Positions 11,662-30,380 of a stretch of 40,000 nucleotides of DNA are shown piece by piece. The position numbers and the translations under genes were made by a program. Position 1 is the first letter of the stretch; each line of letters starts with the position of its first letter. Under the pieces are notes generated by a model. That model saw nothing but the letters and a program-made list of their open reading frames with translations, was not told where the DNA came from and did not search any database. Source of the stretch: Flavobacteriaceae bacterium PS02334 (GTDB lineage: Bacteria; Bacteroidota; Bacteroidia; Flavobacteriales; Flavobacteriaceae); the NCBI GenBank assembly GCA_029959295.1, contig JASCOH010000004.1:229762-269761 (forward strand), written 5' to 3'.

Positions 11662-11667
11662 TCACTT

Positions 11668-12627: not shown

Positions 12628-12666
12628 AAAAATCCCGCCAGTTTTCACCAGCGGGATTTTAAAAAA
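12627..12666. terminator. Bidirectional terminator between egtD and the ALDH gene
   Basis: AAAAAAATCCCGC..(loop)..GCGGGATTTTAAAAAA, a GC-rich stem with A/T runs on both sides between convergent genes. Confidence 0.8.
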
Positions 12667-12679
12667 TTCTATCTAAATC

Positions 12680-14233: not shown

Positions 14234-14327
14234 TTATAACTTTTTGATTGTAAATTGTAATATTTTTTGCGAAGTTATGATTTATAGGTGGAATTTGCGA
14301 ATTAAAATGCGATTTTGGCAATCAGAT

Positions 14328-14479
14328 GTCATTGCGACGAAGGAAGCGATCGCATAATCTGAATAACCAAAAAACTTTTTGAACGCTGATTTGGGCGGAT
14401 GACGCTGATTTTCGCAGATTCTATTTTGTTACAATTAATATGTTGAAAATAGATTATGTGCTTCCTTCGTTGCAATGAC
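14328..14479. repeat. MITE-like intergenic repeat with ~30-bp terminal inverted repeats
   Basis: GTCATTGCGACGAAGGAAGCGATCGCATAATCT (14328-14360) matches the reverse complement of AGATTATGTGCTTCCTTCGTTGCAATGAC (14451-14479). The interior contains ACGCTGATTT / ACGCTGATTTT direct words. Confidence 0.7.
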
Positions 14480-14622
14480 AGTGGAGACAAACTGCGTCAG
14501 TAGCCCCGATTGCAGCGGAAACCCCGGAAACAAAAAAAGCCAGTGTTTTTATTTTAAAGTTTTCAGGAAAAAGCCGTATCGGTTGAATACTAAGCTTTTA
14601 TAGGAATAATCAAAGAAGTCAG

Positions 14623-14638
14623 GTAACGATTTGGTAAC
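14623..14638 (+). repeat. Left copy of the exact 16-bp direct repeat GTAACGATTTGGTAAC (candidate att core)
   Basis: Identical 16-mer at 39781-39796. There is partial flanking similarity (TCAAAG upstream, CTTGCTTTT-AAC downstream). It lies at the core/accessory transition. Confidence 0.4.
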
Positions 14639-14841
14639 GGTGCTTATTACTTTGCTTTTCAACGTGTTTCCGTTCGCTCAAAACAAATATACAAAAGAAT
14701 ATATTACATACCAAAATGATTGAAGTTGGTAAAAATTTAGTAACGTTCCGCTGCTTCTCGTCAGTTGTGAAGTTCGGAACGAATTATTTTCCGTTAAAGA
14801 TAAAAATTCTTGCGAAACGTGAACGTGAATTTACAACAAAA

Positions 14842-14855
14842 CTCGCAATTGCGAG
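14842..14855 (+). other. Palindromic hairpin CTCGCAATTGCGAG, 8 nt upstream of the intron 5' end
   Basis: Perfect 14-nt palindrome. Class C introns are known to home just downstream of stem-loops. Confidence 0.5.
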
Positions 14856-14863
14856 AAACAGAT

Positions 14864-16814
14864 GTGTTTGCCCTGCATCCGCAGGACACACTCTGTAGTG
14901 TCGAAGAAAAATTCGAAAATACAAATTTCGAATTAAGAATCAAACATATGGAGTGTTATTTTTCTAGAAGGTGTAAGTCCTTTATGGGCGGATTAACAAT
15001 TCGAACCATTAGCACGTCGCAAGGTGGTTTATCGTGAGGTATGCACTGAAGGAAGCGAAATGCGAAGCATTCATGAACTCCGATAAAGAGAAAATAAATA
15101 CTTCGTGAATAAACGGCAAAATCCGGTACTGACGAACAGAAATGTCATATGAGGCAAGTTAAAACGGATCAGCGTCCACAGCAACGTAACGTCCCAAGAT
15201 TACCAAAGTTTTAATTTGTAGATGACGCAGGAATTGGAGGAAAGAAAAAGCGGTTACCAGGGGAGGTCTTGACAACTACGAGTTGGTTACGTCAAGAAGT
15301 CAGCAGAAGTCATAGTACTTGTGGCCAACGAGGTGCAAATAGAAATTGCACAGGACTCACTAGCAAGGAAGGACCGAACGCAAAGAGGTTTTCAATGGCT
15401 AAAAGAATTCGCCACGGCGAATAGCTTTAGCTAACGAAAACAGATTGAAACAAAACTAAGATGATTGAACGCGTAGTACATCCTTATCAGCTTGAAAAAG
15501 CATTAAGCCACGTTATTGCCAACAAAGGCAGTGCGGGGGTTGATGGCGTTTCGGTACGTGAAATTTGCAAGATATTCACCGAAAAGAAACAGCAATTTAT
15601 CCAGCAAATTAAAACAGGAAACTATCAAGTGCAACCCATTTTAGGGATTGAAATTCCAAAAGGAAACGGAAAAACCCGATTATTGGGCATTCCTACCACC
15701 ACCGAAAGAGTATGGCAACAAAGTGTGGCACAAAATCTTGCACCACTATTTGAACCCGAATTCAAGCCCAATAGTTATGGATTTAGACCCAATAAAAATG
15801 CCCGACAAGCCGTTGGACAAGCACGGGAATACATCCACCAAGGGTTAAACCACATTGTAGATACCGACTTGAAGAATTTCTTTGACGAAGTGGACCATTG
15901 TTTGTTGCTGAATTTAGTGTACCAAAAAGTAAAGTGCAAAACCACGATGCAACTCCTTCGGAAATGGCTCAAAGCACCCATTAAAATCAACGGAAAACTA
16001 CAAAAACGAAGAAAAGGCGTGCCGCAAGGAAGCCCATTAAGTCCGCTCTTATCCAATATTCTGCTCCATCAATTGGACAAAGAATTGACCAGAAGAGGAC
16101 ACAAATTTGTGCGTTATGCCGATGACTTTAGTATTTATTGCAAAAGCCACAATCAAGCGAAAGCGACTAAAGTTGTTATTGAAAAGTTCCTAAAGAACAA
16201 GCTCAAACTAACCGTCAATCAAGAAAAGAGCGGTGTTCGAAAACCCGTTAACTTCACGATATTAGGCTTTAGTTTTGTGCCTGTTTACAAAAAAGGAAGT
16301 AAAAACCAATACCAACTTGTAGTAGGCGAAAAGGCATGGAAACGCCTAAAGGAACGGCTGAAAAGCATTACCCGAAAAACCACACCAGCAAAATTTGACG
16401 AGCGACTAACCAAGATAAAAGAAGTGCAACGAGGATGGTTAACCTATTTTCGGGGTACCAACATCATGGGGAAATTGCGAGATTTAGACGGCTGGCTTAG
16501 AAATCGACTGCGTTATTGCATTTGGCACGACTGGAAAAAACCTGAAAGAAAGAGGAAAAACCTCATACGATTGGGAATCGACCAAGACCACGCTTATGCT
16601 TGGAGCAGAACTCGAAAAGGCGGTTGGGCAATAGCTCAAAGTCCCATTTTAGGCACAACAATAACCTTACAACGCTTGAAGAAAAGAGGATACTTATCCT
16701 TAACCGAACTTTACATCCAACTCCATCCATCTCTTTGCGAACCGCCGAGTACGTGACCCGTACGCTCGGTGGTGTGAGAGGCTCTCCCTGCTAGTTTCTA
16801 GCGGGGCAGTCTAC
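14864..16814 (+). mobile_element. Group II intron, bacterial class C (IIC), with ORF in domain IV
   Basis: The 5' end is GTGTTTGCCCTGCATCC. GGGGAGGTCT and GAAGTCAGCAGAAGTCATAGTAC (15296-15318) match conserved strings I recall from the Oceanobacillus iheyensis IIC intron. Domain V is GAACCGCCGAGTACGTGACCCGTACGCTCGGTGGT (16739-16773). A domain VI-like stem is CCCTGCTAG/CTAGCGGGG. The 3' end at ..CAGTCTAC (16814) is uncertain by a few nt. Confidence 0.85.
15461..16756 (+). CDS. Group II intron reverse transcriptase/maturase
   Basis: 431 aa with RT motifs GVPQGSPLSPLLSNILL and RYADDFSIYC (YADD) and a maturase X-like RGWLTYF. The last codons overlap domain V. Confidence 0.95.
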   Translation: MIERVVHPYQLEKALSHVIANKGSAGVDGVSVREICKIFTEKKQQFIQQIKTGNYQVQPILGIEIPKGNGKTRLLGIPTTTERVWQQSVAQNLAPLFEPEFKPNSYGFRPNKNARQAVGQAREYIHQGLNHIVDTDLKNFFDEVDHCLLLNLVYQKVKCKTTMQLLRKWLKAPIKINGKLQKRRKGVPQGSPLSPLLSNILLHQLDKELTRRGHKFVRYADDFSIYCKSHNQAKATKVVIEKFLKNKLKLTVNQEKSGVRKPVNFTILGFSFVPVYKKGSKNQYQLVVGEKAWKRLKERLKSITRKTTPAKFDERLTKIKEVQRGWLTYFRGTNIMGKLRDLDGWLRNRLRYCIWHDWKKPERKRKNLIRLGIDQDHAYAWSRTRKGGWAIAQSPILGTTITLQRLKKRGYLSLTELYIQLHPSLCEPPST

Positions 16815-16831
16815 TCGATTGGTGGTAGTTA

Positions 16832-17431
16832 TTATTTTTCAGCAATTGGTAATTTAGAAATTCCTTCTTCAATTTTTTGTATTCCTTCTGGATAGAGTTT
16901 TTTATGATAATACATTTCATTAAAGATTTCACAAAATTTTATAATACTTTCAAAATCATTTTTTTCAATATTTATTTCAATCTCTTTATATGAATTTTGA
17001 AAAAGTTTTATATTCTTATTTTCCCTTGTTTGTTCATCGTCTTCAAAATACTCCCAGGCGAATACGCATAAATCTTCACAACCAACTTTTTCATTGTGAA
17101 TTAGCCAATTGCGAATTTCAAAATCATTTGATTTGATTTTTTTAAATTTTTCTAATTCGACTTGAGTTAAACTTTCATATTTATGAAGTTCTAGTAACTC
17201 CTTTATTTTTTCATAAAAATCACAAAATATGATATTATCTTCAATTCTATATTTATTGCATAATTTCAGTAAATTATCATCTTCATTTTCAAAAGAAATA
17301 TTATAACTATTGCGTGAGCAATAGTTATAAATATTTTCATTTTGTTTCAACCAATTATGTAATTCTGAAATTGGAAATAAAGTATTTGTTCTAAAATATT
17401 CAAGAGCTTTTTGTATTGAGTAAGTTGTCAT
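16832..17431 (-). CDS. Hypothetical protein (cassette gene D)
   Basis: 199 aa, very AT-rich and acidic, with no motif recognised. It lies 22 nt downstream of gene C on the same strand. Confidence 0.6.
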   Translation of the reverse strand: MTTYSIQKALEYFRTNTLFPISELHNWLKQNENIYNYCSRNSYNISFENEDDNLLKLCNKYRIEDNIIFCDFYEKIKELLELHKYESLTQVELEKFKKIKSNDFEIRNWLIHNEKVGCEDLCVFAWEYFEDDEQTRENKNIKLFQNSYKEIEINIEKNDFESIIKFCEIFNEMYYHKKLYPEGIQKIEEGISKLPIAEK

Positions 17432-17453
17432 TATCTTGTCTTGATTAAATTAA

Positions 17454-18719
17454 TCAGTCAATATTCCAATAGTTTTCAGGATCACCTTCAAAAGCTGAAT
17501 TTATTGTGTCATCATCGAAACCATATGCTCCATTATATTCTGAATAACTTCGTCTATCGTATTCATAATCTCCATCATCATAATCTTCATATACTTCTTC
17601 AAAATTTTCATCAAGATAATAACCAAATTTTTCAAAATTTGACTTTATATCTAAATCAAAAAAATAATTATTGAGGTTTTCATCATAACTTACACCATAT
17701 TTTTTCTCGAATTTGATATTGTTTAATGCTAAAGTTTCATTACTGAAATTTAATTTATAATCGATTAAGTTTGGAGCAAATTCAAATATTGTTGAATTCA
17801 ATCTATTAACTGTAATTTTGGATAAAAATTTTAATTTTTCAATTCTTAATAAATGTGGAGGTATAATAAATTTCTCCACATTTTTTATTGCCCAATCTAA
17901 ATAATTAATGTCTGGATTAATTAGATTGGTTTTTTCTGAAACTTCACAATTAAGGCAATCTTTGCGGTTTAATGTTCTTGTGTTGCGGAAATCACATTTT
18001 AGAATTTTTTCTATTAGATTAGAAAAAGATTCTGTTTTTTCTAATTCATTTTCAGCTTGATTCACGTAGAAGTGTTTTTCTATTGCAAAGAAATTTTTTG
18101 TAAGTAATGAATTAAATGGACTATTTCTAACATCGTCGATAGTATTTCTAATTTCGTCTGTTATTTCAAAATAAGGAACTATAATTTTATTATTAAATTC
18201 TTTGTTTTTACAAAAATCAATAATTTCATTTACATAATCTTGTATTAAATTTACCCGATTATATGTAATATTTATTTTTCCTTTTAAAACTTCAAGAATT
18301 GATTTACTTTTATATTTTCCAAAGTTGATTTTTTCTTCACTACTAATGAAACTAGAAATTCTTTTTTCAACAGCCTTTCCGTATTCAAATTTAAGCCACA
18401 AGTAATTTTCATAATAATTTGAAAAATCATCATAAATAGCATTTCCTAACCCAATTTGAATTATTCCCGAAAACCAATCAGCAAAAACAGGTTCATTTGT
18501 TTTAAAAACGTCGTAGTAATTTTGATTTGAAGTTTCTAAATTTGTTATGAATAATTTGTCATCTGTCAATTTCCAATAACCTTGATAACCTCGCCAATGC
18601 GCAGTTGTATGTGCTTCAAATTTTAAATTATTTTTTTCAATAAACGAATTTAAAGGCAAATTACTCATAGAATAATTTTCTCCTCTATATTCAATTATTT
18701 CACTCGCTTGCATTGTCAT
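17454..18719 (-). CDS. Hypothetical protein (cassette gene C) with acidic Tyr/Asp-rich C-terminal tail
   Basis: 421 aa. The N-terminal module has HWRGYQGYWKLTDDKLFITNL. The C-terminus is EEVYEDYDDGDYEYDRRSYSEYNGAYGFDDDTINSAFEGDPENYWNID. No enzymatic motif was seen. Confidence 0.65.
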   Translation of the reverse strand: MTMQASEIIEYRGENYSMSNLPLNSFIEKNNLKFEAHTTAHWRGYQGYWKLTDDKLFITNLETSNQNYYDVFKTNEPVFADWFSGIIQIGLGNAIYDDFSNYYENYLWLKFEYGKAVEKRISSFISSEEKINFGKYKSKSILEVLKGKINITYNRVNLIQDYVNEIIDFCKNKEFNNKIIVPYFEITDEIRNTIDDVRNSPFNSLLTKNFFAIEKHFYVNQAENELEKTESFSNLIEKILKCDFRNTRTLNRKDCLNCEVSEKTNLINPDINYLDWAIKNVEKFIIPPHLLRIEKLKFLSKITVNRLNSTIFEFAPNLIDYKLNFSNETLALNNIKFEKKYGVSYDENLNNYFFDLDIKSNFEKFGYYLDENFEEVYEDYDDGDYEYDRRSYSEYNGAYGFDDDTINSAFEGDPENYWNID

Positions 18720-18769
18720 AATTTCTCTCTATTTTGTCTATTTGCGCAATTTCGGCTACAATTACCACC

Positions 18770-20492
18770 AACGTCAGTCTGTGAAAAAACCGCCGTTTTA
18801 GTACCTCCAAATATAAAAAACTATTTGCATAAAAACAGGAATATTCGTATTTTTAAAGATGCAACACATCACCGGAATTTCCCGTAACCAAATGACCTTC
18901 TCTAGTTTAGATGAGCACATTGCTACTGCTAATCCCACCCGGTTTATCGATGCTTTTGTAGAGCATATTGATTTAAAATCATTAGGTTTTGAAGTGCAGA
19001 CTCTAAAAACAGAAGGCCGTCCGAGTTTTGATACCAAAATTTTTCTCAAGCTTTATCTTTATGGTTATCTCAATGGGCTTCGAAGTTCGCGAAAATTAGA
19101 GAAAGAATTTGTCCGAAATATAGAAATGCAATGGCTCTTGTGCGGGCTGGTTCCCAACTACCACAGCATATCTGACTTTAGGAAAAACAACCCTTTGGGA
19201 TTAAAAAAGCTATTTAAACTTTTTGTCTCATTTTTGAAAGATGCCGATCTCGTTGCAGGCGAAACCATCGCCATCGACGGTACCAAATCCCGAGCCCACA
19301 ACAGTAAGAAAGCCAATTTCAACCAAAAGAAAATCGATAAGCATCTGGCTTACATCGAAGAAAAAACACAGCACTACTTAGAGGAATTGGCCCAAAACGA
19401 TCAAAACGATTCAGGCATTAGCATCAGCAAAATCCAAGAAAAAATAGAGCGACTCAAGACCAATAAAATCCGATACGAACTCTTGGAAGAAAAACGCCAA
19501 GCCAGCGGTGAACCCCAAATCAGCACGACCGATCAAGATGCGCGAGCCTTGCTGGTTCAAGGCCAGGTGGTGGAAGTGAGCTATAACATTCAGGCAGCGG
19601 TGGACAGCAAGCACAATCTGGTTGTAGCCACGCACACCATCAACCGAAACGACCGAAATGCCCTGACGGCGATTGCCTTGGAGACCAAAGAAAACTTACA
19701 AGTAGAAACTTTTACTGTTTTGGTCGATAAAGGCTACCACAACGGACGCGAAATCAGCCAATGTAAAAACCATAACATTACCACGATTGTGGCGCATCCC
19801 GATCAGGGAATAAGTAATGAAAACGGTACTACAAAAGCCTATTTGGTAGCTCAATTTCTGTACGACAAAGCATCCGATACCTACACCTGTCCGATGAACC
19901 AAACCCTAAAAACCACCGGAACCTGGCACAAGAAAACCAGAGACAAGGACAGCTATGACTTTAAAAAATACCGAACGCCAGCCTGCAAGGAATGTCCAGC
20001 AAAATCGCACTGTACCAGCAGAAAAGGCGGTCGGGAAATTGACCGGAGCCAGTATGCCGATGCCGTAGAAGAAAACAACAGGCGCTACCAAGAAAACCAG
20101 CAGCTGTACCGCAAACGCCAAGAAATCAACGAGCATATCTTTGGCACTATCAAGCGCCAATGGGGCTACAACCACACCAACTTAACAGGGCTCGAAAAAG
20201 TAAACGGAGAACACAGCCTGATTATGCTGGTGTACAACATCAAGCGTACGATAAATATTTTGGGCATACCCGATCTGATGGCCCGATTTAAGAATTGGAA
20301 ATCGCCTTACAAAACAAAGGCGTGTCTTCTTTTTAAGACGATCCTTTTAAAGCTCTTTCCAAGTCATTTTGAAATCCAATTCTATTTTGTTGCTTAAAAA
20401 ACAGCCTTCCTTACAAGAGATTTATGCAAGCATCAGAAAGCTCTTTGTGAGTTAAAAATGTGAAAAAGGGAGTTTTTTCACAGCCTGACGTT
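18770..20492 (+). mobile_element. IS1182-family insertion sequence
   Basis: The terminal inverted repeats are AACGTCAGTCTGTGAAAAAAC (18770-18790) and the reverse complement of GTTTTTTCACAGCCTGACGTT (20472-20492), matching 20/21. The outer ACGT is palindromic, so it may be a 4-bp target duplication instead (IS then 18775-20487). There is a single transposase ORF. Confidence 0.85.
18859..20397 (+). CDS. IS1182-family DDE transposase
   Basis: 512 aa. The N-terminus GRPSFDTKIFLKLYLYGYLNGLRSSRKLEKEFVRNIEMQWLL is typical of IS1182/IS5-like transposases. It also has VLVDKGYHNG and a C-terminal Cys cluster CPMN...CKECPAKSHC. Confidence 0.9.
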   Translation: MQHITGISRNQMTFSSLDEHIATANPTRFIDAFVEHIDLKSLGFEVQTLKTEGRPSFDTKIFLKLYLYGYLNGLRSSRKLEKEFVRNIEMQWLLCGLVPNYHSISDFRKNNPLGLKKLFKLFVSFLKDADLVAGETIAIDGTKSRAHNSKKANFNQKKIDKHLAYIEEKTQHYLEELAQNDQNDSGISISKIQEKIERLKTNKIRYELLEEKRQASGEPQISTTDQDARALLVQGQVVEVSYNIQAAVDSKHNLVVATHTINRNDRNALTAIALETKENLQVETFTVLVDKGYHNGREISQCKNHNITTIVAHPDQGISNENGTTKAYLVAQFLYDKASDTYTCPMNQTLKTTGTWHKKTRDKDSYDFKKYRTPACKECPAKSHCTSRKGGREIDRSQYADAVEENNRRYQENQQLYRKRQEINEHIFGTIKRQWGYNHTNLTGLEKVNGEHSLIMLVYNIKRTINILGIPDLMARFKNWKSPYKTKACLLFKTILLKLFPSHFEIQFYFVA

Positions 20493-20614
20493 TTGGCGCT
20501 TGGCGAAGGTGGCGATTTTCACCACAAATGTTGATGCGGAGAACCAAACTTTGATTAACCACAAAACTGTCTGCGGAGCACTGAACCGCCACTTTTGCCA
20601 AACGCCTGTTATGC
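20488..20614. repeat. 127-bp structured repeat, copy A (right terminus GTTATGC)
   Basis: 120/127 identical to 21431-21557 with no indels. It has 20-nt inverted arms (GGCGCTTGGCGAAGGTGGCG / CGCCACTTTTGCCAAACGCC) and an internal tandem word ACCACAAA..TGCGGAG x2. The left edge abuts the IS. Confidence 0.9.
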
Positions 20615-20621
20615 CCAGTTT

Positions 20622-21071
20622 TTATTTTTCTGTCCAATATTTTTCTTTTAAATATTCTGTTTTTTGAATGTCGCAACCTAATACAAATACTCTGTAAACT
20701 GGTCTGTCTGGTCCGTAATAGGGTATTTTGTCTTCAAAAAATTCTGTTTTTATTTTCTGTAATTCACTTTTCAGGTCATTGATTTTATTTAGGTCTGTCG
20801 AAAAACCTATGCAATGAGTTTTTGCCCATTTGTCAGATTTAATTTGATTAAAAGCATACTCAATTATTTCAGGTTCAGACTTGAAGTATTTCAAATTGTT
20901 TTTTTGTCCACGTTCAGTATAATACCAAATAAAAAGTCCGCCCGAATTGTCAATTCCATAACCTTCATAAATACTGTTTCCGTTTATCGAATAACTGTTG
21001 AAATTTAAGCAATTTTCTTTCATCCATTTTTCAAGTTCACTTTCTGTCCTTGGTAAATAGTTGCTATCCAT
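20622..21071 (-). CDS. Hypothetical protein (cassette gene B), immunity-protein-like size and composition
   Basis: 149 aa with no recognised motif. Its start overlaps the stop of the upstream gene by 8 nt (ATGGATAG). Confidence 0.65.
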   Translation of the reverse strand: MDSNYLPRTESELEKWMKENCLNFNSYSINGNSIYEGYGIDNSGGLFIWYYTERGQKNNLKYFKSEPEIIEYAFNQIKSDKWAKTHCIGFSTDLNKINDLKSELQKIKTEFFEDKIPYYGPDRPVYRVFVLGCDIQKTEYLKEKYWTEK

Positions 21072-21429
21072 TTGTCAGTTTTTTATGGGTGAATGCTCGC
21101 AACTCAATTTCAGCTTTTAGTTTTTCAAATTCGTTGTCAAAATATAATTTAAAGAAGTGTTTTACATTTTCCCAGTTGTCAAGTTTAGTTTGAATTTGCT
21201 CGTCTTGATTTTCTCCATAAACAAAAAATAGGTCGAGGTTTTTGTGAACTTCAAGAACAAATTCGTTTTCCATATGTCCAACCCAAAATGCTCCGTGTTC
21301 TTCGTCCATTCGGATTGTTTCTTCTATTGCGTTTTTTATGTCTTCAAATGTTGCGTTCTCAACAGAGTCGCCCCAACCTTTTTCTATCCAAAAGTTTGTT
21401 GTCATACGTGTCGTCTTAAAATTGGGCAT
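21064..21429 (-). CDS. Hypothetical protein (cassette gene A)
   Basis: Track ORF 21064..21507 runs into repeat B. The likely start is Met at 21429 (MPNFKTTR..) or 21405 (MTTNFWIEKGW..). It is small and acidic with no motif. Confidence 0.6.
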   Translation of the reverse strand: MPNFKTTRMTTNFWIEKGWGDSVENATFEDIKNAIEETIRMDEEHGAFWVGHMENEFVLEVHKNLDLFFVYGENQDEQIQTKLDNWENVKHFFKLYFDNEFEKLKAEIELRAFTHKKLTNG

Positions 21430-21557
21430 AACGTTTTGCGGCTTGGCGAAGGTGGCGATTTTTACCACAAATGTTGATGCGGAGAACCAAACTTTGATTA
21501 ACCACAAATGTGTCTGCGGAGCACTGAACCGCCACTTTTGCCAAACCGCTGTTATGC
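21426..21557. repeat. 127-bp structured repeat, copy B, with both terminal heptamers (GCATAAC ... GTTATGC)
   Basis: GCATAAC is at 21426-21432 and GTTATGC at 21551-21557. The arms 21438-21457 and 21530-21549 pair with 17 Watson-Crick pairs, 2 G-T pairs and 1 mismatch. Confidence 0.9.
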
Positions 21558-21708
21558 GTTCGCCCTTCTTTTCCTGTAATAGTTTTAGTATCCAATATTG
21601 ATGTCTTTTTTAGGTAATATTAAATACAAAAAGCAGACTTCAAAGATAAATAACATCTTCAAAATCCGCTTAAAAAGTAATGAAATTTGTCTATTTAGGT
21701 TAGATTTT

Positions 21709-21872
21709 TTCAGCAATGGGAAAGTCAATTTCAAACTCTGTCAAGTTGTGTAAATAGTTGCTGATAATTTTATCGCCAACAACTATTATTACATCTATCA
21801 TATTGGCTTCGTTGTAACCTGCTCCAAAAAATGCTTCTCTGCTTTCTTCGTTTGCACGTCCACGGTTTTTAT
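21709..21872 (-). pseudogene. 5'-truncated remnant of a second AhpD-like (carboxymuconolactone decarboxylase family) gene
   Basis: About 164 bp at roughly 90% identity to the 3' end of 22519..23067, including the stop. It translates to ..RGRANEESREAFFGAGYNEANMIDVIIVVGDKIISNYLHNLTEFEIDFPIAEKI* with no N-terminal part. Confidence 0.8.
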
Positions 21873-21997
21873 TGCAGTAATTTTTCTATTTTTAAAAGAA
21901 TAATTGTTTCGGTAATATTACAATTGCCCCCTCGGTAAAAACGCCTTTTTTGATGTAAAAATATAAACCAGAGCGTTTATACTGAGGGGATAAAAGA

Positions 21998-22432
21998 CTA
22001 CTTTTCTTCCAAACCTGCTTCATTATAAACCACCATCAACGAAATACCCAATGCCATAATATCTTTCAAAACAAAAAAGTCTGTAGTGGGTACACCATCA
22101 ATTATTTTATTAATACCTGGCGTTGTCAATAAAAAACTTAGAGTTGTGCCAAAAATAACGACTGCTGCCCAGCCAAATATTTTTCCAACTTGGGGTTTAA
22201 ATAAACTCCAAATTAAACCAATACCTACAATGATTTCGAAAAGCCCAATGATATTTGAAACGACTTGAACGCTCAACACTTTGTACATCCACGACATCAA
22301 AAAGTGGTTTTCAACGTAAGGTTTTATGAATACAGCTTCCGATGGTGTGAATTTAAAAAAACCAATCCAAAGTAATACAACGACGACACCTGAAACGGCT
22401 ATTTTATAGCCTAACTTATTTATTTTACTCAT
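21998..22432 (-). CDS. DUF417 / RclC(YkgB)-like inner-membrane protein
   Basis: 144 aa. WIGFFKFTPSEAVFIKPYVENHFLMSWMY, TLSFLLTTPG and VLKDIMALG parallel the E. coli RclC sequence as I recall it. Confidence 0.7.
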   Translation of the reverse strand: MSKINKLGYKIAVSGVVVVLLWIGFFKFTPSEAVFIKPYVENHFLMSWMYKVLSVQVVSNIIGLFEIIVGIGLIWSLFKPQVGKIFGWAAVVIFGTTLSFLLTTPGINKIIDGVPTTDFFVLKDIMALGISLMVVYNEAGLEEK

Positions 22433-22518
22433 TTTATTTATTTTTAAAAGAATTGTAATTGAAAAAATTGGGGTGATTGCTTAGAGAAAAATACGTTTTA
22501 TTTTTACGCTTCAACCAA

Positions 22519-23067
22519 TTATAATTTTTCTGCAACAGGAAAGTCAATTTCAAACTCTGTCAAGTTGTGTAAATAATTGCTAATAATTTTATCGCCAACA
22601 ACTATTATTACATCTATCATATTGGCTTCGCTGTAACCTGCTCCAAAAAATGCTTCTTTGCTTTCTTCGGTTGCACGTCCACGATTTTCAACTGCTGATG
22701 CTGTGAATTTCGCTAAAGCGTCTAACTTACTGTCGAAACTTGCTGTTCCTTTACGAATTTCTAAAATTTGTTCGTCTGAAAAACCATTCATTTTTCCTAA
22801 TGCTGTGTGAGCCGATTGGCAATAACGACAACCATTAATTTGACTTGTTACCAAGTTTATCACTTCTCTTTCTTTGGCTCTTAATGTGCTTTTTCGATTT
22901 TGAAGCGTTAAATAGTCGCCTAATGCTGTTTCATTTTTAGCGAAATAGGCATACAAATTAGGAACAAAACCTAAACCTTTTTGGAGGTTGTCAAACATAC
23001 CTTGATTGTTTGCAGATACTTCTTCTCTTGTTGGAACCGTGTAAGTTCTTTTTTCTGATGTTGTCAT
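22519..23067 (-). CDS. AhpD-like alkylhydroperoxidase / carboxymuconolactone decarboxylase family protein
   Basis: 182 aa with the CxxC-H motif INGCRYCQSAH, which is typical of the AhpD core. Confidence 0.8.
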   Translation of the reverse strand: MTTSEKRTYTVPTREEVSANNQGMFDNLQKGLGFVPNLYAYFAKNETALGDYLTLQNRKSTLRAKEREVINLVTSQINGCRYCQSAHTALGKMNGFSDEQILEIRKGTASFDSKLDALAKFTASAVENRGRATEESKEAFFGAGYSEANMIDVIIVVGDKIISNYLHNLTEFEIDFPVAEKL

Positions 23068-23170
23068 TTTATTATTTTTTAAATATTGTTTGTCTTTATT
23101 GACGATACAAAGGTGCGATGACTTACAATAGATAAAAATGATGTAGTTTAGGAAATTTGGTTGATGTAGT

Positions 23171-23755
23171 TCAACTTTTCTTTGAAACCCTTTTATTTCT
23201 TATTCTGGATAAAAATTCATTCGTCATTCCTAAATAAGAAGCTAAAGCATATTGAGGAACTCTTTGCACGATTTGAGGATATTTATTTGAAAAAGTTTCG
23301 TAGCGTTCTTCGGCTGTTTGGGTTAGGTTTGAAATTATTCTTCTCTGTTGAGCAGCAAGTCCTCGTTCTGCCATTATCCTAAAAAAAGTTTCAAATTTGT
23401 GATTTTGTAATTTTAGTTCTTGTTCTTTTTCATAGTCAAGTTGTAAAATTATGCTGTCTTCTAATGCAACCACAAACATTGTCGCAGGTTGTTGAAAAAT
23501 ATAGCTGTTATAATCTGTAATCCACCAGTCATCAATGGCAAAAGTAATTGTGTGTTCTTGCCCTTCATCAGCCACAAAATAAGCCCTAAATGCTCCTTGC
23601 AAAACATAGTGTCTGTGCTTGGCTATAAAGTTTGGTTGAACTATGAATTGTCGTTTTTTAATTTTTTCTTCTTTGAAACAAGAACTAAAAAGCTTCTTTT
23701 CTTCTTCTGTCAGTTTTACAAACTTGTCAATATATGAAGTTATTTTGTTTGTCAT
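23171..23755 (-). CDS. Crp/Fnr-family transcriptional regulator
   Basis: 194 aa with an N-terminal cNMP-binding-like beta-roll and a C-terminal HTH (QYALASYLGMTNEFLSRIRNK). Confidence 0.8.
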   Translation of the reverse strand: MTNKITSYIDKFVKLTEEEKKLFSSCFKEEKIKKRQFIVQPNFIAKHRHYVLQGAFRAYFVADEGQEHTITFAIDDWWITDYNSYIFQQPATMFVVALEDSIILQLDYEKEQELKLQNHKFETFFRIMAERGLAAQQRRIISNLTQTAEERYETFSNKYPQIVQRVPQYALASYLGMTNEFLSRIRNKRVSKKS

Positions 23756-23898
23756 TTAGTCTAATGTTGATGATTAGTAGTGTCGCTCATAGGGTGACGC
23801 ATAACGCACAAATATCCGAAAGTTTTAATAAACACACAAATTAAACATCTATCAATACGTCAGTAACTTATGATTTTATATATTTGCAGATATTCAAA

Positions 23899-25002
23899 AT
23901 GCGAAGCTATATGGATACTCAAAATACGAACCCCGAATTTAATCCTTCTCTTTTTAAAATTACTTTAGGAACACATCGGGGAAAGAAAGTGATTTGGTTA
24001 AAATTTAATTATGATAAACTCTTAATTGAAATATTGCGACAGCACACCAAAGCACATTGGTCGCAATTGGAAAAAACTTGGTACGTGGTTGATAATCTGC
24101 ATAACAGAAATCTTTGCGGTATTCAGCCCGATATTGTGGGAAAAGATATGCTGTGCAAAATATCTGCATCCAACTTGCCCGAGTTTCAAAAATACCAAAA
24201 CATACTTACTCTCAAAAGCTTATCGCCGAATACCATCCGCACCTATTCCATTGAGTTTGCCCAATTATTATATTTGCTTAAAGATTTTCCTGTACAGGAA
24301 CTTTCACCCGAAAGACTGCAAAGCTATTTCTTATACTGTTTCAAAGAACTGAAACTTTCCGAAAACCAAATCCACAGCAGGATAAATGCAATAAAGTTCT
24401 ACTACGAAAAAGTTTTGCATCGTAAAAAAATGTTTCTTGACATTCCACGCCCCAAAAAACCTTTGCTTTTGCCCAAATCACTGAACATTGAAGATGTAAA
24501 AAAGCTTTTTTCAGTAACCGAAAATATCAAACACCGGCTTATTCTGCAACTCTGTTACGGAATGGGCTTGCGTGTAAGCGAAATCGTGAACCTGAAAATT
24601 GAAGACATCGACAGTCGGAATATGAAAGTACTCATTCACAGGGGCAAAGGCAAAAAGGACAGATATGTCAACCTGCCACATTCAGTATTGGAAGATTTAC
24701 GGAATTATTATAAAGAATATCTTCCGAAAGACTTCCTTTTTGAGGGACAGTATGGTGGACAATATACCGTACGAAGTTCACAGCTTGTTTTCAAAAAGGC
24801 AATGAAAAAGGCAAAAATAAACAAAAACATAGGCATTCACGGATTGAGGCACAGCTATGCAACACATCTTTTGGAATTTGGCACAGACATTAGTTTTATC
24901 CAAAAGCTTTTGGGGCATAACGATATCCGTACCACACAAATTTATGCCAGGGCTTCGGACACATCGATTGCTAAAGTCGTTTCTCCTTTGGATAGGATAT
25001 GA
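23899..25002 (+). CDS. Tyrosine recombinase, IntI/XerD-like (SAM_4-type N-domain) with extra N-terminal domain
   Basis: Track ORF begins at TTG 23884; ATG at 23899 is preferred. The catalytic set is GLRVSE (R), HGLRHSYATHLL (HxxR) and LGHNDIRTTQIYARA (Y). The core-binding region is NTIRTYSIEFAQLL. The C-terminus VVSPLDRI resembles that of IntI1. Confidence 0.85.
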   Translation: MRSYMDTQNTNPEFNPSLFKITLGTHRGKKVIWLKFNYDKLLIEILRQHTKAHWSQLEKTWYVVDNLHNRNLCGIQPDIVGKDMLCKISASNLPEFQKYQNILTLKSLSPNTIRTYSIEFAQLLYLLKDFPVQELSPERLQSYFLYCFKELKLSENQIHSRINAIKFYYEKVLHRKKMFLDIPRPKKPLLLPKSLNIEDVKKLFSVTENIKHRLILQLCYGMGLRVSEIVNLKIEDIDSRNMKVLIHRGKGKKDRYVNLPHSVLEDLRNYYKEYLPKDFLFEGQYGGQYTVRSSQLVFKKAMKKAKINKNIGIHGLRHSYATHLLEFGTDISFIQKLLGHNDIRTTQIYARASDTSIAKVVSPLDRI

Positions 25003-25079: not shown

Positions 25080-26336
25080 TTATCTAGGGTAATATTTTTT
25101 CTTCTTAATCTGATTAGCAAACACTTCTTCCTCGTAATCTTCTCCCTGTGCATCAGGTAGCAAACTGAATAATCCTAAATCAGAACTATCTGAATGCTCA
25201 ATTGAAATAATTTCAAATAGGTCTTTTGTCGGCAGATTGTCTATCGTATTCGTACTAGAAGGGCTATTCTGCATTTTTAACTCGGGCTTATTTCCATTGT
25301 CCCACCATTCGTTAAAGACATTTGCTGACAGGTTTCTATCCAAAGCTGAACCGTTCCAAACACTACGGCTTTCGTGGTCAATAAAGGTCATTCCGTAAAT
25401 TCGTCCTTCATTATTACGTCTTACAACCGTATTGATGCCCTGTTCTGCAAGTTGCTTTTTAAATTCCGTTTCGTTCTTTGTGGTATGTATAGCCAATTCA
25501 ATTGTATTCTTTAGGACAGACCTTGCAGGGTTGGTTTTCATTTTCTCTTTGGATTGTTCAAAATGTTTTTGAAGCTGTACCACACCTGCATCTTTTCCGA
25601 AAAGCGATGCCTTGAACGGATTACTTACTTTGTTCCTTTTTTCGTCCAACGCTACATACACCAATCCGTTTACGGTCTGACCGTTCCGCTCTCCTTTGAC
25701 TTCTTCCGCTGTGATACTGAAAAGGAAAAGTAACGCATTGTAACTACCTATAGTAGAATAGCTATAATACTTTGGTAGATGCCGTACTACCGAAGCAATC
25801 TGACTTTTGATGTCGCCATTTTTATGATTTACAGGCTTAAAAACTTTATTAGTTTGTTTCTGTTCCTGCTCGATGGCTTTGTTCAGGTTATATTTCGTTT
25901 CCAAATCCCGACAGATTGCCATTGAACGTGGGTGGTCGTAATCATCGGGGATTTTCTTTCCGTCAATTTCCACGCAGGTCGAAACGATATGGATATGCGT
26001 GCGGTCTATATCGGTATGCTTGAAAACAATATAGGGCTGATTGCCGTACCTCATACGTTCCATATATTCCTGTGCCATATCCGCAAACTGCTGGTCGCTG
26101 ACCTTATCCGCAGGATCTGGGTTCAGCGATATATGCCTTACCGTCTTTTCTGTTTTGATATTGGCAGACAGATACGGCTCAAAACATTTGTTGAAATATT
26201 GGGAAGAATACCTGCCGTCCACCGTATCAGGTATCTTATTTAGCAACAGAACCGCTCCGTTTTCCTTTTCCACTTTCTGCTGATTGTACAGAATTGCCCC
26301 GTACATATTGCTTCCTTTTCCAATTTTTGCAATCAT
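25080..26336 (-). CDS. Relaxase/mobilization nuclease (MobB-type of Bacteroidota mobilizable elements)
   Basis: 418 aa with N-terminal MIAKIGKGSNMYGAILYN, HISLNP and the His-triad HTDIDRTHIHIV. Confidence 0.9.
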   Translation of the reverse strand: MIAKIGKGSNMYGAILYNQQKVEKENGAVLLLNKIPDTVDGRYSSQYFNKCFEPYLSANIKTEKTVRHISLNPDPADKVSDQQFADMAQEYMERMRYGNQPYIVFKHTDIDRTHIHIVSTCVEIDGKKIPDDYDHPRSMAICRDLETKYNLNKAIEQEQKQTNKVFKPVNHKNGDIKSQIASVVRHLPKYYSYSTIGSYNALLFLFSITAEEVKGERNGQTVNGLVYVALDEKRNKVSNPFKASLFGKDAGVVQLQKHFEQSKEKMKTNPARSVLKNTIELAIHTTKNETEFKKQLAEQGINTVVRRNNEGRIYGMTFIDHESRSVWNGSALDRNLSANVFNEWWDNGNKPELKMQNSPSSTNTIDNLPTKDLFEIISIEHSDSSDLGLFSLLPDAQGEDYEEEVFANQIKKKKYYPR

Positions 26337-26340
26337 TTTT

Positions 26341-26775
26341 CTACTCTTTTTTCAGGTATTTCTTTTCAAATTCTGAGCTTAGGGCAACAACTTTCAGCAA
26401 CAATTCTTTCATTTCTATTGTCTGTTTTTCCAATTTATAGAAGTATGCAGATGCTTTCTTATCCGAAAAGTTTGTGTTCAACAGCTTTACAATCTGATTG
26501 TAATTGGTTGCTATCCCTCTGAATTGGCTAAAAAATCGGGTCAGCCCTTCGTGGTATTCTACTGCATCCATATTAATTTTGACGGTCTTTAATGTCTTCT
26601 GAAAGATGCAAGCCGTAATGAAATGTGCCGTTACTTTCATTCCCGACTGGTCAAAAAGGGCAAGGAATTTGGCATTGTCCTCGTCATTCAGGTTAAAGGA
26701 ATACCGATGTACCGCAGGGTCAATCTTTGGTTTTCTCCCTGTTTTCCTAATCTGTTTTCTGTCATTCTCTTCCAT
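26341..26775 (-). CDS. MobC-like relaxosome accessory protein (MobA of Bacteroides nomenclature)
   Basis: 144 aa with the GIATNYNQIVKLLN motif (MobC NxNQ signature). It lies 4 nt upstream of the relaxase. Confidence 0.8.
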   Translation of the reverse strand: MEENDRKQIRKTGRKPKIDPAVHRYSFNLNDEDNAKFLALFDQSGMKVTAHFITACIFQKTLKTVKINMDAVEYHEGLTRFFSQFRGIATNYNQIVKLLNTNFSDKKASAYFYKLEKQTIEMKELLLKVVALSSEFEKKYLKKE

Positions 26776-26846
26776 AATAATCCATTTTAATTTTTAAACA
26801 AACGGGCGACTTCGGAGCCGTTTCCAGCCCCCTGCAAGGGCAAGTG

Positions 26847-26885
26847 CTTTTGAGGTGCCGAAATTCATTTCGAGTACCTCAAAAG
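26847..26885. other. Nested hairpin, candidate oriT or transcript-end structure upstream of mobC-like gene
   Basis: CTTTTGAGGTGC-CGAAAT-TC-ATTTCG-AGTACCTCAAAAG, with outer stem 11/12 and inner stem 6/6. A second palindrome ATCCGTTTT-G-AAAACGGAT is at 26915-26933. Confidence 0.4.
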
Positions 26886-27325
26886 ATAACTTGCTCTGAA
26901 CAGGAGTTCAGAAAATCCGTTTTGAAAACGGATTGGAGTTAGCCGGGAAATCCCATCGATTCTATTACAAATTTCGGTAAGACTGTTTGAATAACAGTCA
27001 TTTATAGTCACGTCAATGAACGACAAATAGTTCCTCTGAATGCCACCACAATGCATATTGGGACTGCTTTAATTTCCTTTGTATATGGCTAGCTGGCTGA
27101 TTGGTTATATCCTTAGTTAGTTAACTAATTAGCATAAAGTCCGACAGTAAATCATCATAATTGATTGCAAGCGAATTGCAAATTTTTCAGTTAATGAAAC
27201 AGCTAATTATGGGTATGCAGTTGCATAAGTAAATAGATAGGTAGTTACATAGTTACAATAGTATATATAACTGGCTGTTCAGCTAACCAGTCAGCTAATT
27301 TGTGATAACATTAATAACAACAGAT

Positions 27326-27817
27326 ATGATACACGAAGAAAACAAAAATCAGCAACCCGAAACAGAGGGTTTTATAGAAAATTTCCTAACTGATAAGAAG
27401 AAGGAACCTTCCACAGGACAACAGGCGTTAAAGCATCGGGAAGACTTTGCCAAACCCCAAGTGGATGAGGAAGCGATCATGCGTGTAATGGCAGGTGAAG
27501 AACCTGCGGAAACTGAAACGGAACGCAAAAGACCGTCCGTTAACAATACTAAAAAAAGTAATTCACAGCCAAAGAAGCTGACCCAAGAAGATTACTGTGG
27601 ACAGTTCTTTAAAATCCCTACAACAACGGCAAGCAGGGGCAAATCGGTCTATGTACGGCAGGAACACCACGAAACGTTCAACAGACTTACCAATATTATG
27701 GGCATTGACAAACTCACCATTTATGCATATTTGGATAATATTATCGAATACCATTTTCGGGAGTTCGGGGAATTGATTAAAGAAATCTATAACGAAAAGC
27801 ACAAACCCTTGTTTTGA
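27326..27817 (+). CDS. DUF3408-like protein of Bacteroidota mobile elements
   Basis: Track ORF begins at GTG 27302; ATG 27326 is preferred. The C-terminal KSVYVRQEHHETFNRLTNIMGIDKLTIYAYLDNIIEYHF matches my recollection of the DUF3408 pattern. It is divergent from the mob genes. Confidence 0.7.
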   Translation: MIHEENKNQQPETEGFIENFLTDKKKEPSTGQQALKHREDFAKPQVDEEAIMRVMAGEEPAETETERKRPSVNNTKKSNSQPKKLTQEDYCGQFFKIPTTTASRGKSVYVRQEHHETFNRLTNIMGIDKLTIYAYLDNIIEYHFREFGELIKEIYNEKHKPLF

Positions 27818-27959
27818 CAATTACTTGTGTCTGCAAAAAGAATAGCAGAATATTTTGGATATTCTGCTGAAAAGCCATTGAACGCCAAACAGTACCGCTG
27901 ACAGCTACTTTGGACAAATGCTTCGCTATCAGGATTAATTTCCCGAAAAGCGAAAAATT

Positions 27960-28631
27960 ATGCTACACAAAGAAACGGTCAGCAAAGAAATGTGGGAACT
28001 TCTCCAAAGGCTGATGAAAGATGAAATACTGAAAGATTTTAATCTCGTTGGCGGAACTTCGCTAAGTCTTCAGATCGGCCACCGATTAAGCATCGATATA
28101 GATCTGTTCACTACAAAAGGCTTTGACGAACAAGCCCTGTTGAAAGATTTAGCCAATAAGTATCCGATAAGGATAAGGGATATGTTTGATAATACAATCC
28201 TGCTAGATATAGATAAGGTAAAAGTAGATATTCTCGCCCACCAATATCCTTGGCAAAAGCCCATTGAAACAATAGAAGGGGTACGGTTAGCTTCTCTAGA
28301 GGACATAGGGGCAATGAAACTTCACGCGATCTTTCAAAATGGTACACGGATAAAGGATTTCATTGATATGTACTTTCTCCTAGAACATCATCCGCTTACG
28401 ATCTATCTGGAATCTTATCGGAACAAGTATGGTGGCAATCCTGCTATGGCTTCATACGCTTTATTGCATCATAAAAATATAGATAAGGAAGTAAAAGTTA
28501 ATATGTTGAAAGGAAAAGAAGTTGATATGAAAAAGGTTGCTGAGCGATTGACAAAAGCTGTCTATAATCCAACGCTCAAATTCGGAGAAAGACCAGATCC
28601 GCCTAATAAAGGCAGAGGTTTTAAGCGCTGA
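27960..28631 (+). CDS. AbiEii/AbiGii-family nucleotidyltransferase (type IV TA toxin-like)
   Basis: 223 aa with the signature LVGGTSLSLQIGHRLSIDIDLF. Confidence 0.8.
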   Translation: MLHKETVSKEMWELLQRLMKDEILKDFNLVGGTSLSLQIGHRLSIDIDLFTTKGFDEQALLKDLANKYPIRIRDMFDNTILLDIDKVKVDILAHQYPWQKPIETIEGVRLASLEDIGAMKLHAIFQNGTRIKDFIDMYFLLEHHPLTIYLESYRNKYGGNPAMASYALLHHKNIDKEVKVNMLKGKEVDMKKVAERLTKAVYNPTLKFGERPDPPNKGRGFKR

Positions 28632-28670
28632 TATAATGAGTAACAGCTAAAAAAATCGTATCTTTATTGT

Positions 28671-30250: not shown

Positions 30251-30300
30251 CCGATTAAATCAAAATGAATACTAAAAAATTATAGCTTTATCAGTCAATT

Positions 30301-30341: not shown

Positions 30342-30380
30342 GTTATGCTATTTTCGAATAAATTATGCAAGTATCAATAA

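Follow-up and report, generated by a model that had tools for sequence, protein, structure and literature searches.

The described systems that come closest to the locus reported here are integrons, the recombinase-associated immunity-gene arrays of type rAID-1, the homology-independent insertion of resistance genes at specific sites in Riemerella anatipestifer, and the pdif modules of Acinetobacter plasmids. The locus lies in a stretch of 40,000 nucleotides (nt) from Flavobacteriaceae bacterium PS02334 (GenBank assembly GCA_029959295.1, contig JASCOH010000004.1, positions 229,762 to 269,761), which was analyzed as a whole and is called the window below. In it, a tyrosine recombinase gene stands beside an array of genes separated by hairpin-forming repeats. 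We find that this locus is very probably an integron-like platform for the capture and expression of gene cassettes, carried by an integrative mobilizable element (IME). The platform is a homologue and an architectural variant of rAID-1. It stands outside the family formed by the integron integrase IntI and its attC sites, defining features of which we tested for without finding them.

As in integrons, the recombinase gene points away from a co-oriented array whose cassettes mostly lack promoters, and an attI site lies by the recombinase gene together with a promoter, here a predicted one, that reads into the array. The cassettes end in an imperfect palindrome of the form ..AAC / GTT.. with exchange at G|TT, in agreement with the RYYYAAC ... 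GTTRRRY criterion. Their ends are circular permutations of one site whose R' box derives from the neighboring cassette. Further points in common are the occurrence of mobile and chromosomal versions, of cassettes with antibiotic-resistance genes, and of group IIC introns that invade the arrays on the bottom strand. The recombinase differs from IntI in that it lacks the IntI insertion, scores under the family cutoffs and possesses an extra N-terminal domain of ~95 amino acids (aa). The sites differ as well: each is one long covarying stem with A.C mismatches and a 4- to 5-nt bulge, belonging to one of three discrete length classes, whereas attC is built of R and L boxes with extrahelical bases. 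The hosts are Bacteroidota, where canonical integrons are nearly absent; surveys with IntegronFinder list only In0 elements and a single complete integron (Salinibacter) for Bacteroidetes.

rAID-1, which stands for recombinase-associated acquired interbacterial defense, was defined as a Bacteroidales-restricted system of gut bacteria with co-directional arrays (Ross et al. 2019, bioRxiv 10.1101/471110; PMC12247911). The papers on it mention "repetitive intergenic sequences reminiscent of integrons" and "conserved intergenic sequence motifs" and give no mechanism (bioRxiv 10.1101/471110; PMC12247911). Both systems consist of low-GC arrays of short co-oriented genes with repeated intergenic motifs between them, and the same rule governs their cassette ends. 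Their recombinases are homologous: that of a rAID-1-type array from Bacteroides ovatus has 367 aa, like the one in the window, and is 45% identical to it over 269 aa, a value measured against the B. ovatus protein and not against BF9343_RS08045, to which the rAID-1 criterion of at least 44% identity refers. In rAID-1, the array is downstream of the recombinase gene and co-directional with it, the hairpins have ~45 to 50 nt and the form xTAAC...CC|ATTA, and the cargo consists of immunity genes. Here, in contrast, the array is upstream and divergent (co-directional relatives are L099, L100, and L101) and carries a stress module along with proteins that have no immunity-domain match.

In R. anatipestifer, aph(3')-IVb flanked by a 5' untranslated region (UTR) of 27 bp and by an "attC-like" 3' UTR of 140 bp integrates site specifically and without homology (PMC13148043), as do lnu(H) and blaRATA (PMC13148043, AAC 2026). 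The composition of this unit, a gene with a short 5' UTR and a ~140-bp 3' stem-loop in a host of the Flavobacteriales, is shared with the cassettes described below, but that work named neither a recombinase nor a platform. The ~140-bp stem-loop fits the main length class found here, 119 to 128 nt plus a spacer after the stop codon. On Acinetobacter plasmids, the pdif modules are likewise discrete accessory-gene units bounded by sites for Xer-type tyrosine recombinases. These sites, however, are XerC/XerD sites of 28 bp in duplex form, on which the chromosomal Xer system of the host acts, and unlike the present locus, the modules are not known to have a dedicated recombinase, attI, folded sites, or an ordered array.

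In the accessible literature, subscription-only papers being outside the search, the remarks "reminiscent of integrons" (rAID-1) and "attC-like" (Riemerella) are all that bears on this system. Nothing in the same non-subscription literature describes how the sites are built, the rule for cassette ends, attI, the targeting by introns, the spread beyond Bacteroidales, or cassettes with resistance genes.

The array changes at a fixed attI-like site

Between 23755 and 16832, every open reading frame uses the minus strand and is divergent from the recombinase gene, the transposase gene of an insertion sequence (IS) being the sole exception. The list of open reading frames thus bears out what a preliminary description of this DNA, made from the letters alone, had said of the layout. 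With the IS and an intron left out, the GC content across 17 to 24 kb is 0.25 to 0.39, which is within the rAID-1 low-GC limit of 41%.

On the recombinase side, the metagenome contigs L001 to L003 match the window at 100%, and L010 (a Flavobacterium metagenome-assembled genome with a 99% identical recombinase) and L015 (Flavobacterium erciyesense, with a 93% identical backbone) match it at 93 to 99.5%. Similarity is lost at 23802/23803 throughout, where a different first cassette follows in each. To the right of this breakpoint, L001 and L002/L003 share the sequence of the window at 100% identity; to its left, they are unrelated to the window. Read on the top strand, by which we mean the minus strand that carries the cassette genes, the three versions of the junction are GCGTT|ATGC, GCGTT|ACAAGC, and GCGTT|GTACCC. 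The break falls inside the heptamer GCATAAC at 23799-23805 (top strand, GTT|ATGC), which has 10 copies in the window against 3.4 expected. The preliminary description had pointed to this heptamer and suggested comparing the locus across strains for cassette gain or loss exactly there; the comparison with these contigs places the change of the array precisely at GTT|ATGC. Since the backbones break inside GCATAAC, it is the recombination junction, and the site to which it belongs is attI-like. A 10-mer, AATGTTGATG, had been singled out along with it and occurs three times in the window (0.21 expected), twice in hairpin centers. Its third copy is present at 23763-23772, inside the first cassette in the 5' UTR of the Crp-like gene. 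We found no support for a significance of the 10-mer: this copy is not kept in related cassettes and is probably due to chance, if not a relic.

The attI-like site reads TTTG-N20-GATATTTG-TGC-GTT on the top strand, with the crossover at GTT|, between 23803 and 23802, and it is located upstream of the recombinase gene, at a distance of 94 nt. Across 60 distinct loci, the consensus is TTTG-N18-20-(T/G)CGTATATTTG.G.|GTT, also written TTGCGTATATTTGAGA|GTT, and the motif is found 84 to 328 nt upstream of the recombinase start. In these 60 loci, TTTG is 18 to 20 nt upstream of TAnnTTTG. The housekeeping promoter consensus of Bacteroidetes is TTTG-N19-21-TAnnTTTG. We infer from the match that a -33/-7 promoter overlaps attI and reads into the array, with transcription starting at about the crossover point. 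The motif could equally be, or also be, a binding site of the recombinase.

The far border of the array is shared as well. A 200-bp backbone segment (14546-14745) is 99.5% identical to L010 6452-6651 and L015 888-1089, and in both it likewise comes after the last attC, whose R' box is GTTACTAAAT. The three elements therefore hold differing arrays between a common attI side and a common distal segment.

The cassettes are bounded by one family of hairpin sites

The two structured repeats of the preliminary description are real. They extend over 132 nt each (20483-20614 and 21426-21557), are 93 to 94% identical, and form one long imperfect hairpin apiece; the 40-kb window contains no further copy of their sequence. 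A third site had been missed. It is divergent, ends in ...GCGGAAC GTT ACTAAAT, has arms that pair, and is split by an intron which parts its R'' box (16830-16820) from its body (14865-14735). On the top strand, a repeat starts with GCATAAC-A and ends with C-GTT; the box that opens a site is termed R'' and the box that closes it R'. The two repeats differ from each other by double compensatory GC<->CG swaps in the outer stem. Folded as RNA, the window copy gave z-scores of -7.0 for the minus strand and -4.0 for the plus strand.

Twelve aligned sites, among them sites from the arrays of L010 and of the Chryseobacterium gotjawalense chromosome (L014), provided a template. In it, [NNNN]AAC-A is followed by a stem of 10 bp, an A.C mismatch, a further two base pairs, a second A.C mismatch, and a stem of ~6 bp; after a variable center come the returning arms, a one-sided bulge of 4 to 5 nt, and C-GTT[NNNN]. 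Compensatory changes were found at 17 of the 18 stem pairs, and 97.6% of cells were paired, a level that 0 of 500 shuffles reached and that compares with 28 to 40% in slid controls.

A covariance model built on the 12 sites was used to search the window and 82 related loci (83 sources, 1.05 Mb). It was used instead of a plain scan for AAC...GTT with paired arms, which yielded many false positives at -17 to -25 kcal/mol. The model found 95 distinct sites in 38 of the 83 sources. Every one of them lies on the strand opposite to the recombinase and within the 332 kb upstream of recombinase genes, and the 719 kb of recombinase gene and downstream sequence contained none. Where more than 2 kb of upstream sequence was available, at least one site was present in 27 of 36 loci. 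The sites start with ..AAC (91/95) and end with GTT.. (90/95), and the distance from AAC to GTT falls into three discrete classes of 73 to 90, 119 to 128, and 182 to 189 nt across all arrays. Dense arrays, with 9 to 13 sites per 10 kb, also occur without any relaxase on the chromosomes of C. gotjawalense and Kaistella antarctica. As a separate observation, the center of the 124-nt class is conserved in sequence within a subfamily (TTTGTGGTTAATCAAA ... TTTGTGGTAA).

In an alignment of 106 sites, which was fitted to the covariance model and is hence biased towards it, 94.4% of cells were paired, the inner A.C mismatch was present in 105 sites and the outer in 81, A followed AAC in all 106, and C preceded GTT in 104. 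With DNA energy parameters, the bottom strand was more stable in 73 of 93 sites, by 2.1 kcal/mol on average (Wilcoxon p = 1e-11), because each conserved A.C mismatch in the top strand corresponds to a G.T wobble when the bottom strand folds.

A riboswitch, a leader, or another known RNA was considered as the identity of the repeats and rejected, since a scan of the window against Rfam matched group II intron families only.

Cassette ends carry the signature of circular cassettes

In integrons, the R' box beyond G|TT comes from the next cassette, so that the 5' end of a cassette complements its own R''. The arrays studied here follow this rule. When R'' of a site i was reverse complemented and set against R' of site i-1, at least 6 of the 7 variable nt agreed in 48 of the 57 adjacent pairs (mean, 5.93); the mean was 3.15 against R' of the same hairpin and 2.99 against random R'. 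The exceptions are mostly gaps of 1.6 to 6.5 kb, which probably contain a missed or interrupted site. At attI, too, the arrays conform: the 5' end of the first cassette matched R'' of the first site at 9 to 10 of 10 nt in 33 of 38 arrays.

With the IS and the intron removed, the three cassettes of the window obey the rule at 9/10 (A), 10/10 (B), and 10/10 (C) positions. Cassette A begins with GTTATGCGTC, to be compared with the reverse complement of its own R'' (GTTATGCGTT); the ends of cassette B, GTTATGCCCA and TGGGCATAAC, are perfect reverse complements; and the 5' end of cassette C, GTTGGTGGTA, matches the reverse complement of its R'' (TTGGTGGTAG). In their sequence, such ends bear the mark of a circular cassette. 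The pattern is not what one would predict for a promoter, a leader, a terminator, or a miniature inverted-repeat transposable element (MITE).

Two minor observations concern cassettes in other arrays. A gene-less cassette of ~390 nt is present twice in L014, at positions 1 and 6 of the array (4279-4578 and 9479-9778; 300 nt, 99% identical), and the first cassette of Kaistella treverensis (L048), 387 nt long, has a start very similar to it. An R'' box with the sequence TTAGTTCAAC recurs after long gaps of 2.4 to 4.6 kb in five species (L015, L021, L023, L050, and L073), suggesting either a large cassette of wide distribution or an insertion that is common.

The sites of the window have been entered by an IS and a group IIC intron

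The preliminary description had the locus visited by an IS and a IIC intron, and both indeed sit inside attC-like sites. The IS sits in the R' box of attC 2, within AACGT|T. It is flanked by a target duplication, ACGT (18771-18774 and 20488-20491), and its inverted repeats are CAGTCTGTGAAAAAAC and CAGGCTGTGAAAAAAC; removing it restores a complete attC 2. The notion that the repeat is a part of the IS was rejected because of this restoration and because a 30-nt inverted repeat (I2) overlaps the site only via the palindromic ACGT.

The intron matches RF02001, RF01998, and RF00029. The end of the D5/D6 match at 16819 fixes its 3' end. The Rfam D1-D4 model begins ~160 nt inside the intron (match starts, 15028-15034) and so gives no 5' end, which is instead placed at 14866 or 14864 by L006, where positions 1-36 (reverse complement of GTGTGCCCTGCATCC...) abut the hairpin body. 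The 3' junction is CGAT|T in three different R'' boxes, in the window, L001, and L006. The target of the intron in the sites is therefore GT|T of the bottom strand. Group IIC-attC introns insert likewise into the bottom strand of integron attC (PMC3001079). Together with the higher stability of the bottom strand, this choice of strand suggests that the sites fold on the bottom strand, as in integrons. The window copy starts with GTTTG, that of L006 with GTGTG (usual form, GUGYG), and the former may be impaired in splicing, to judge by this start.

Gene content of the window cassettes

The genes proximal to the recombinase, the stress module of the preliminary description, turned out to be not several cassettes but a single 2.2-kb multi-gene one, in which the covariance model found no internal attC-like site. 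Its predicted products make cassette A a putative Crp-regulated module of the oxidative-stress type. The truncated paralog noted earlier does exist, with 94% identity over 170 nt, but as a sign of cassette turnover it fails: it copies the 3' end of the CMD/AhpD gene and is an internal duplication within one cassette, not a cassette of its own.

The pair of small genes between the two repeats stands, with products of 113 and 149 aa (~120 and 149 aa in the preliminary description) and an overlap of 8 nt. Cassette B recurs in other contexts on L005 to L009, bounded at the same AAC and GTT, and a homologue is found in the co-directional array of Pedobacter puniceum (L101). In the metagenome contig L005, cassette B and GCATAAC-AG are followed at 874-2102 by unrelated DNA with a 340-aa gene on the opposite strand, which may be another retroelement or insertion aimed at the same site.

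Cassettes B and C together encode four proteins, all from families of hypothetical proteins that occur throughout Bacteroidota. They had been likened to immunity or defense factors, for which we found no support: none of the four has a match, to an immunity or defense domain or any other, in Pfam, NCBIfam, or PADLOC, and a structure search gave no fold match for the 149-aa protein.

The recombinase belongs to the Xer/IntI clade and lacks the IntI insertion

The recombinase has Phage_int_SAM_4 and Phage_integrase domains (Pfam), and the catalytic residues R, K, H, R, H, and Y are invariant across its family. Its best NCBIfam model is XerA (198 bits; cutoff, 220), followed by the integron integrase and then XerC/D, and every one of these scores is below its cutoff. 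The integron integrase model TIGR02249 gave 178 bits against a cutoff of 265, with the match split into two stretches, and PRK15417/NF011946 gave 116 against 435. Among PDB entries, the nearest sequences are archaeal XerA and VchIntIA, and the nearest folds are VchIntIA (2a3v) and XerA. The IntI-specific insertion in the catalytic domain (alpha-I2, ~46 residues) is absent, as residues 201-248 of the 2a3v chain face only residues 289-295 of the query. For the additional N-terminal domain, Pfam gave no match; its residues 15-72 are modeled by AlphaFold as a beta-beta-alpha-beta-beta-alpha unit.

The identical protein is encoded on the metagenome contigs L001 to L004. Its relatives comprise at least 7963 proteins at E <= 1e-20, and a scan of one genome per species yielded 428 stretches that encode one, in Flavobacteriales, Chitinophagales, Cytophagales, and some Bacteroidales.

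Relatives include co-directional arrays and resistance plasmids

A Chryseobacterium plasmid (L099) encodes a 40% identical recombinase, annotated as "recombinase/integron integrase," with four sites of the same family downstream and on the same strand, as well as an inverted group II intron. The array of P. puniceum is also co-directional. The B. ovatus recombinase introduced above is encoded on a plasmid (L100) in the typical rAID-1 arrangement, followed by SMI1/KNR4, Imm26, PoNi, Tdi1, and other immunity genes. Its intergenic regions of 65 to 80 nt contain the mini-hairpins, which the covariance model did not detect. Read by eye, 8 of 8 junctions obey the cassette rule. The link to rAID-type arrays drawn in the preliminary description is thus right in substance.

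On Riemerella, Bacteroides, and Myroides plasmids, several resistance genes have high-scoring sites (58 to 109 bits) around them. For tet(X2), a site begins 14 nt past the stop codon (107 to 109 bits), and a second one is located just upstream; a site of 96 bits follows aadS; and catB genes are inverted within their cassettes, with sites around them. On Myroides p63039, a truncated tyrosine recombinase gene is divergent from a site and tet(X2) and adjoins an IS91-family transposase gene. Acinetobacter baumannii p29FS20-1 (L098, NZ_CP044520.1, 4052-6073) encodes a truncated recombinase of 221 aa, 46% identical, directly upstream of tet(X5)-estT and flanked by ISVsa3. Such a fragment is present on ~50 Acinetobacter plasmids, and the covariance model detected no hairpin site in the Acinetobacter tet(X5) context. 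The fragment may be a relic of the Bacteroidota platform that was moved along with tet(X).

Proposed mechanism and alternatives

The integron-like core of the preliminary description is supported by what we observed at this locus and its relatives: junctions on other contigs, a conserved structure of the sites, their exclusive position and orientation in such arrays, the complementary ends of cassettes, and the IS and the intron inside sites. In the mechanism that we propose, the dedicated recombinase of the Xer/IntI clade would act on two kinds of site, the fixed attI-like site and the attC-like sites at the 3' ends of cassettes, and strand exchange would take place at the conserved (G)|TT. 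Recombination of attC with attC would free a circular cassette with a single hairpin site, and recombination of attI with attC would put this cassette beside the recombinase gene, where the Bacteroidota-type -33/-7 promoter overlapping attI would read into it. As in integrons, we infer, the substrate is a folded single strand, namely, the bottom strand.

Several findings weigh against this mechanism. Among the 36 homologous loci for which over 2 kb of upstream DNA was available, 9 yielded no site. At one stem position, 44 of 106 sites have a T.G wobble in the top strand, a bias in the opposite direction, and the hairpins could also, or instead, act as RNA, as the z-score of the window copy is stronger for the top strand. 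In VchIntIA, the insertion missing here touches the extrahelical bases of folded attC, so that reading a folded strand without it would require another solution. The recombinase is a presumed catalyst at these sites, and circular cassettes were deduced from end sequences. Cassette A is unusually large and multigenic. The recombinase homologues examined in R. anatipestifer have housekeeping surroundings with neither attI nor an array. A direct link to the Riemerella experiments was therefore rejected, the integration locus there not being tied to a recombinase.

The same cassette system could work by recombination of duplex DNA at the short ..AAC / GTT.. cores, in the manner of Xer or Cre. The hairpins would then have been kept for other roles, e.g., as transcription terminators, insulators, or mRNA-stabilizing structures between cassettes. 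We consider this unlikely, even though the recombinase is without the domain by which IntI reads folded attC and has XerA, XerC, and XerD as its nearest sequence relatives, the transcribed strand folds very strongly as RNA, and arrays of the rAID-1 type manage with mini-hairpins. Invariant mismatches and an asymmetric bulge by GTT would be meaningless in duplex DNA, and the R' half is swapped with each neighbor, so that a duplex site would never have a fixed sequence. Moreover, the bottom strand is systematically more stable under DNA parameters, and it is the strand into which the group IIC intron homes, an element that targets stem-loop or single-stranded DNA (PMC3001079).

A second alternative makes the recombinase the integrase of the mobilizable element, the DNA to its left a set of varied chromosomal insertion sites, and the repeats unrelated palindromes of the MITE or repetitive extragenic palindromic (REP) type. 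The element has an integrase of its own, of the CTnDOT/NBU type, at its other end, and the same 200-bp backbone segment is found beyond the array in three elements, neither of which fits. The recombinase gene does adjoin the relaxase and MobC genes, but arrays beside homologous recombinases also occur without mobilization genes. The repeats are, it is true, imperfect palindromes of MITE-like size; their end complementarity, however, is between neighboring sites and not within a site, they have no target duplications, and all 95 sites are upstream of the recombinase in one orientation. This explanation is very improbable. That a canonical integron with IntI and attC was overlooked by annotation tools can be practically dismissed, for all the divergent geometry, the folded sites bounded by AAC and GTT, the attI by the integrase, the IIC-attC-like intron, and the best PDB structural match to VchIntIA, given the scores far below both integrase cutoffs, the missing insertion, the extra N-terminal domain, the conserved mismatches in place of attC extrahelical bases, and the IntegronFinder surveys of Bacteroidetes.

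The evidence for an integron-like platform at this locus can be extended to a wider reading, toward which we lean only slightly: that Bacteroidota have their own pan-phylum counterpart of integrons, with divergent and rAID-1 geometries, which was the original vehicle of tet(X), aadS, and catB and underlies the integration in Riemerella. An insertion-less recombinase would capture circular cassettes through folded single-stranded hairpins in chromosomal as well as IME-borne forms, and the platform would have carried these and other resistance genes until they were moved on by ISCR2 or IS4351. The prevailing view is that integrons are nearly absent from Bacteroidota and that the IntI-specific domain is essential for the recombination of folded attC. 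At this locus and its relatives, the same integron logic, i.e., attI, a predicted promoter, hairpin-bounded circular cassettes, and mobile and sedentary forms, is widespread in Flavobacteriales, Chitinophagales, Cytophagales, and some Bacteroidales, with another recombinase and another site architecture. It supplies a mechanism, concrete enough to be tested, for the immunity arrays of the rAID-1 type in gut Bacteroides and may explain the site-specific uptake of resistance genes in Riemerella. The position of tet(X2), aadS, and catB as cassettes between such sites bears on the origin and movement of tigecycline resistance. The covariance model and the attI consensus are a means to annotate such arrays.

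Features of the window and its surroundings

The cassette platform forms the left part of an integrative mobilizable element that extends from 14546 to at least 39668 and whose backbone is common to L011, L015, and L021. Coordinates are collected in Table 1.

TABLE 1 Features of the window and resistance plasmids with sites of the same family
Feature	Position	Strand	Details
Chromosomal flank	1-14233		Aldehyde dehydrogenase and ergothioneine-biosynthesis-like genes; looks like ordinary chromosome
Conserved distal backbone segment	14546-14734 (14546-14745, 200 bp, in the comparison with L010 and L015)	minus	Follows last attC; role like 3' conserved segment
attC-like site 3, divergent type, body and R'	14735-14865	minus	Covariance model, 34 bits, E = 2e-5
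Group IIC-type intron	14866-16819	plus (bottom strand)	Opposite to cassettes, at GT|T of attC 3 R'' box
Intron reverse transcriptase/maturase	15461-16756	plus	TIGR04416, 369 bits (generic model)
Cassette C	16820-18774	minus	Ends in R'' box CTACCACCAA(C) at 16830-16820
199-aa gene, cassette C	16832-17431	minus	
421-aa gene, cassette C	17454-18719	minus	
IS1182-family element	18775-20487 (1713 bp)	plus	Transposase 18859-20397; NF033551, 350 bits
attC-like site 2	20488-20617 and, beyond IS, 18774-18765	minus	R' box GTTGGTGGTA; covariance model, 120.6 bits
Cassette B	20618-21429	minus	Two overlapping genes of hypothetical proteins
149-aa gene, cassette B	20622-21071	minus	
113-aa gene, cassette B	21064-21405	minus	
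attC-like site 1	21423-21560	minus	AAC 21553-21551, GTT 21432-21430; covariance model, 138.5 bits
Cassette A	21561-23802	minus	2.2 kb, multi-gene
CMD remnant, cassette A, downstream of DUF417	21700-21869 (170 nt)	minus	94% identical to 22519-22688
DUF417 membrane protein, cassette A	21998-22432	minus	Pfam
CMD/AhpD-family protein, cassette A	22519-23067	minus	Pfam
Crp/Fnr-like regulator, cassette A	23171-23755	minus	Pfam
attI-like site	23803-23840	minus	Overlaps Bacteroidota-type promoter motif pointing into array
Tyrosine recombinase, Xer/IntI clade	23899-25002	plus	367 aa; alternative start 23911
Element backbone	25080-39668		Relaxase, MobC_2, DUF3408, AbiEii, two HTH_17, two GmrSD-like genes, integrase (Pfam)
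Relaxase	25080-26336		Pfam
MobC_2	26341-26775		Pfam
CTnDOT/NBU-type integrase	38418-39668		Right end of element; Arm-DNA-bind_5 and SAM_5 domains
Resistance plasmids	L095, NC_019261.1 (pRA0511), 1163-4575; L096, NZ_CP072214.1, 1-4055; L097, NZ_CP013691.1, 2529-4055		tet(X2), aadS, catB

The 40-kb window contains no tRNA genes, and a tRNA-linked att site was rejected on that ground. In the backbone, 27960-34446 holds likely defense cargo: the gene of an AbiEii-family toxin, partnered by DUF6922, and, side by side, two GmrSD-like (DUF262/DUF1524) genes. Of these two, one matches the SspE/HEC-06 models of PADLOC. In the chromosomal flank, an EgtB-like gene (DinB_2 and FGE-sulfatase domains) adjoins an EgtD-like gene (Methyltransf_33) at 10498-12627, likely an ergothioneine biosynthesis pair. 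Just outside the element, the flank also contains a 21-nt inverted repeat, TGTCATTGCGACGAAGGAAGC (14327-14480), which is 95% complementary, has its arms 112 nt apart, and is unrelated to the attC-like family.

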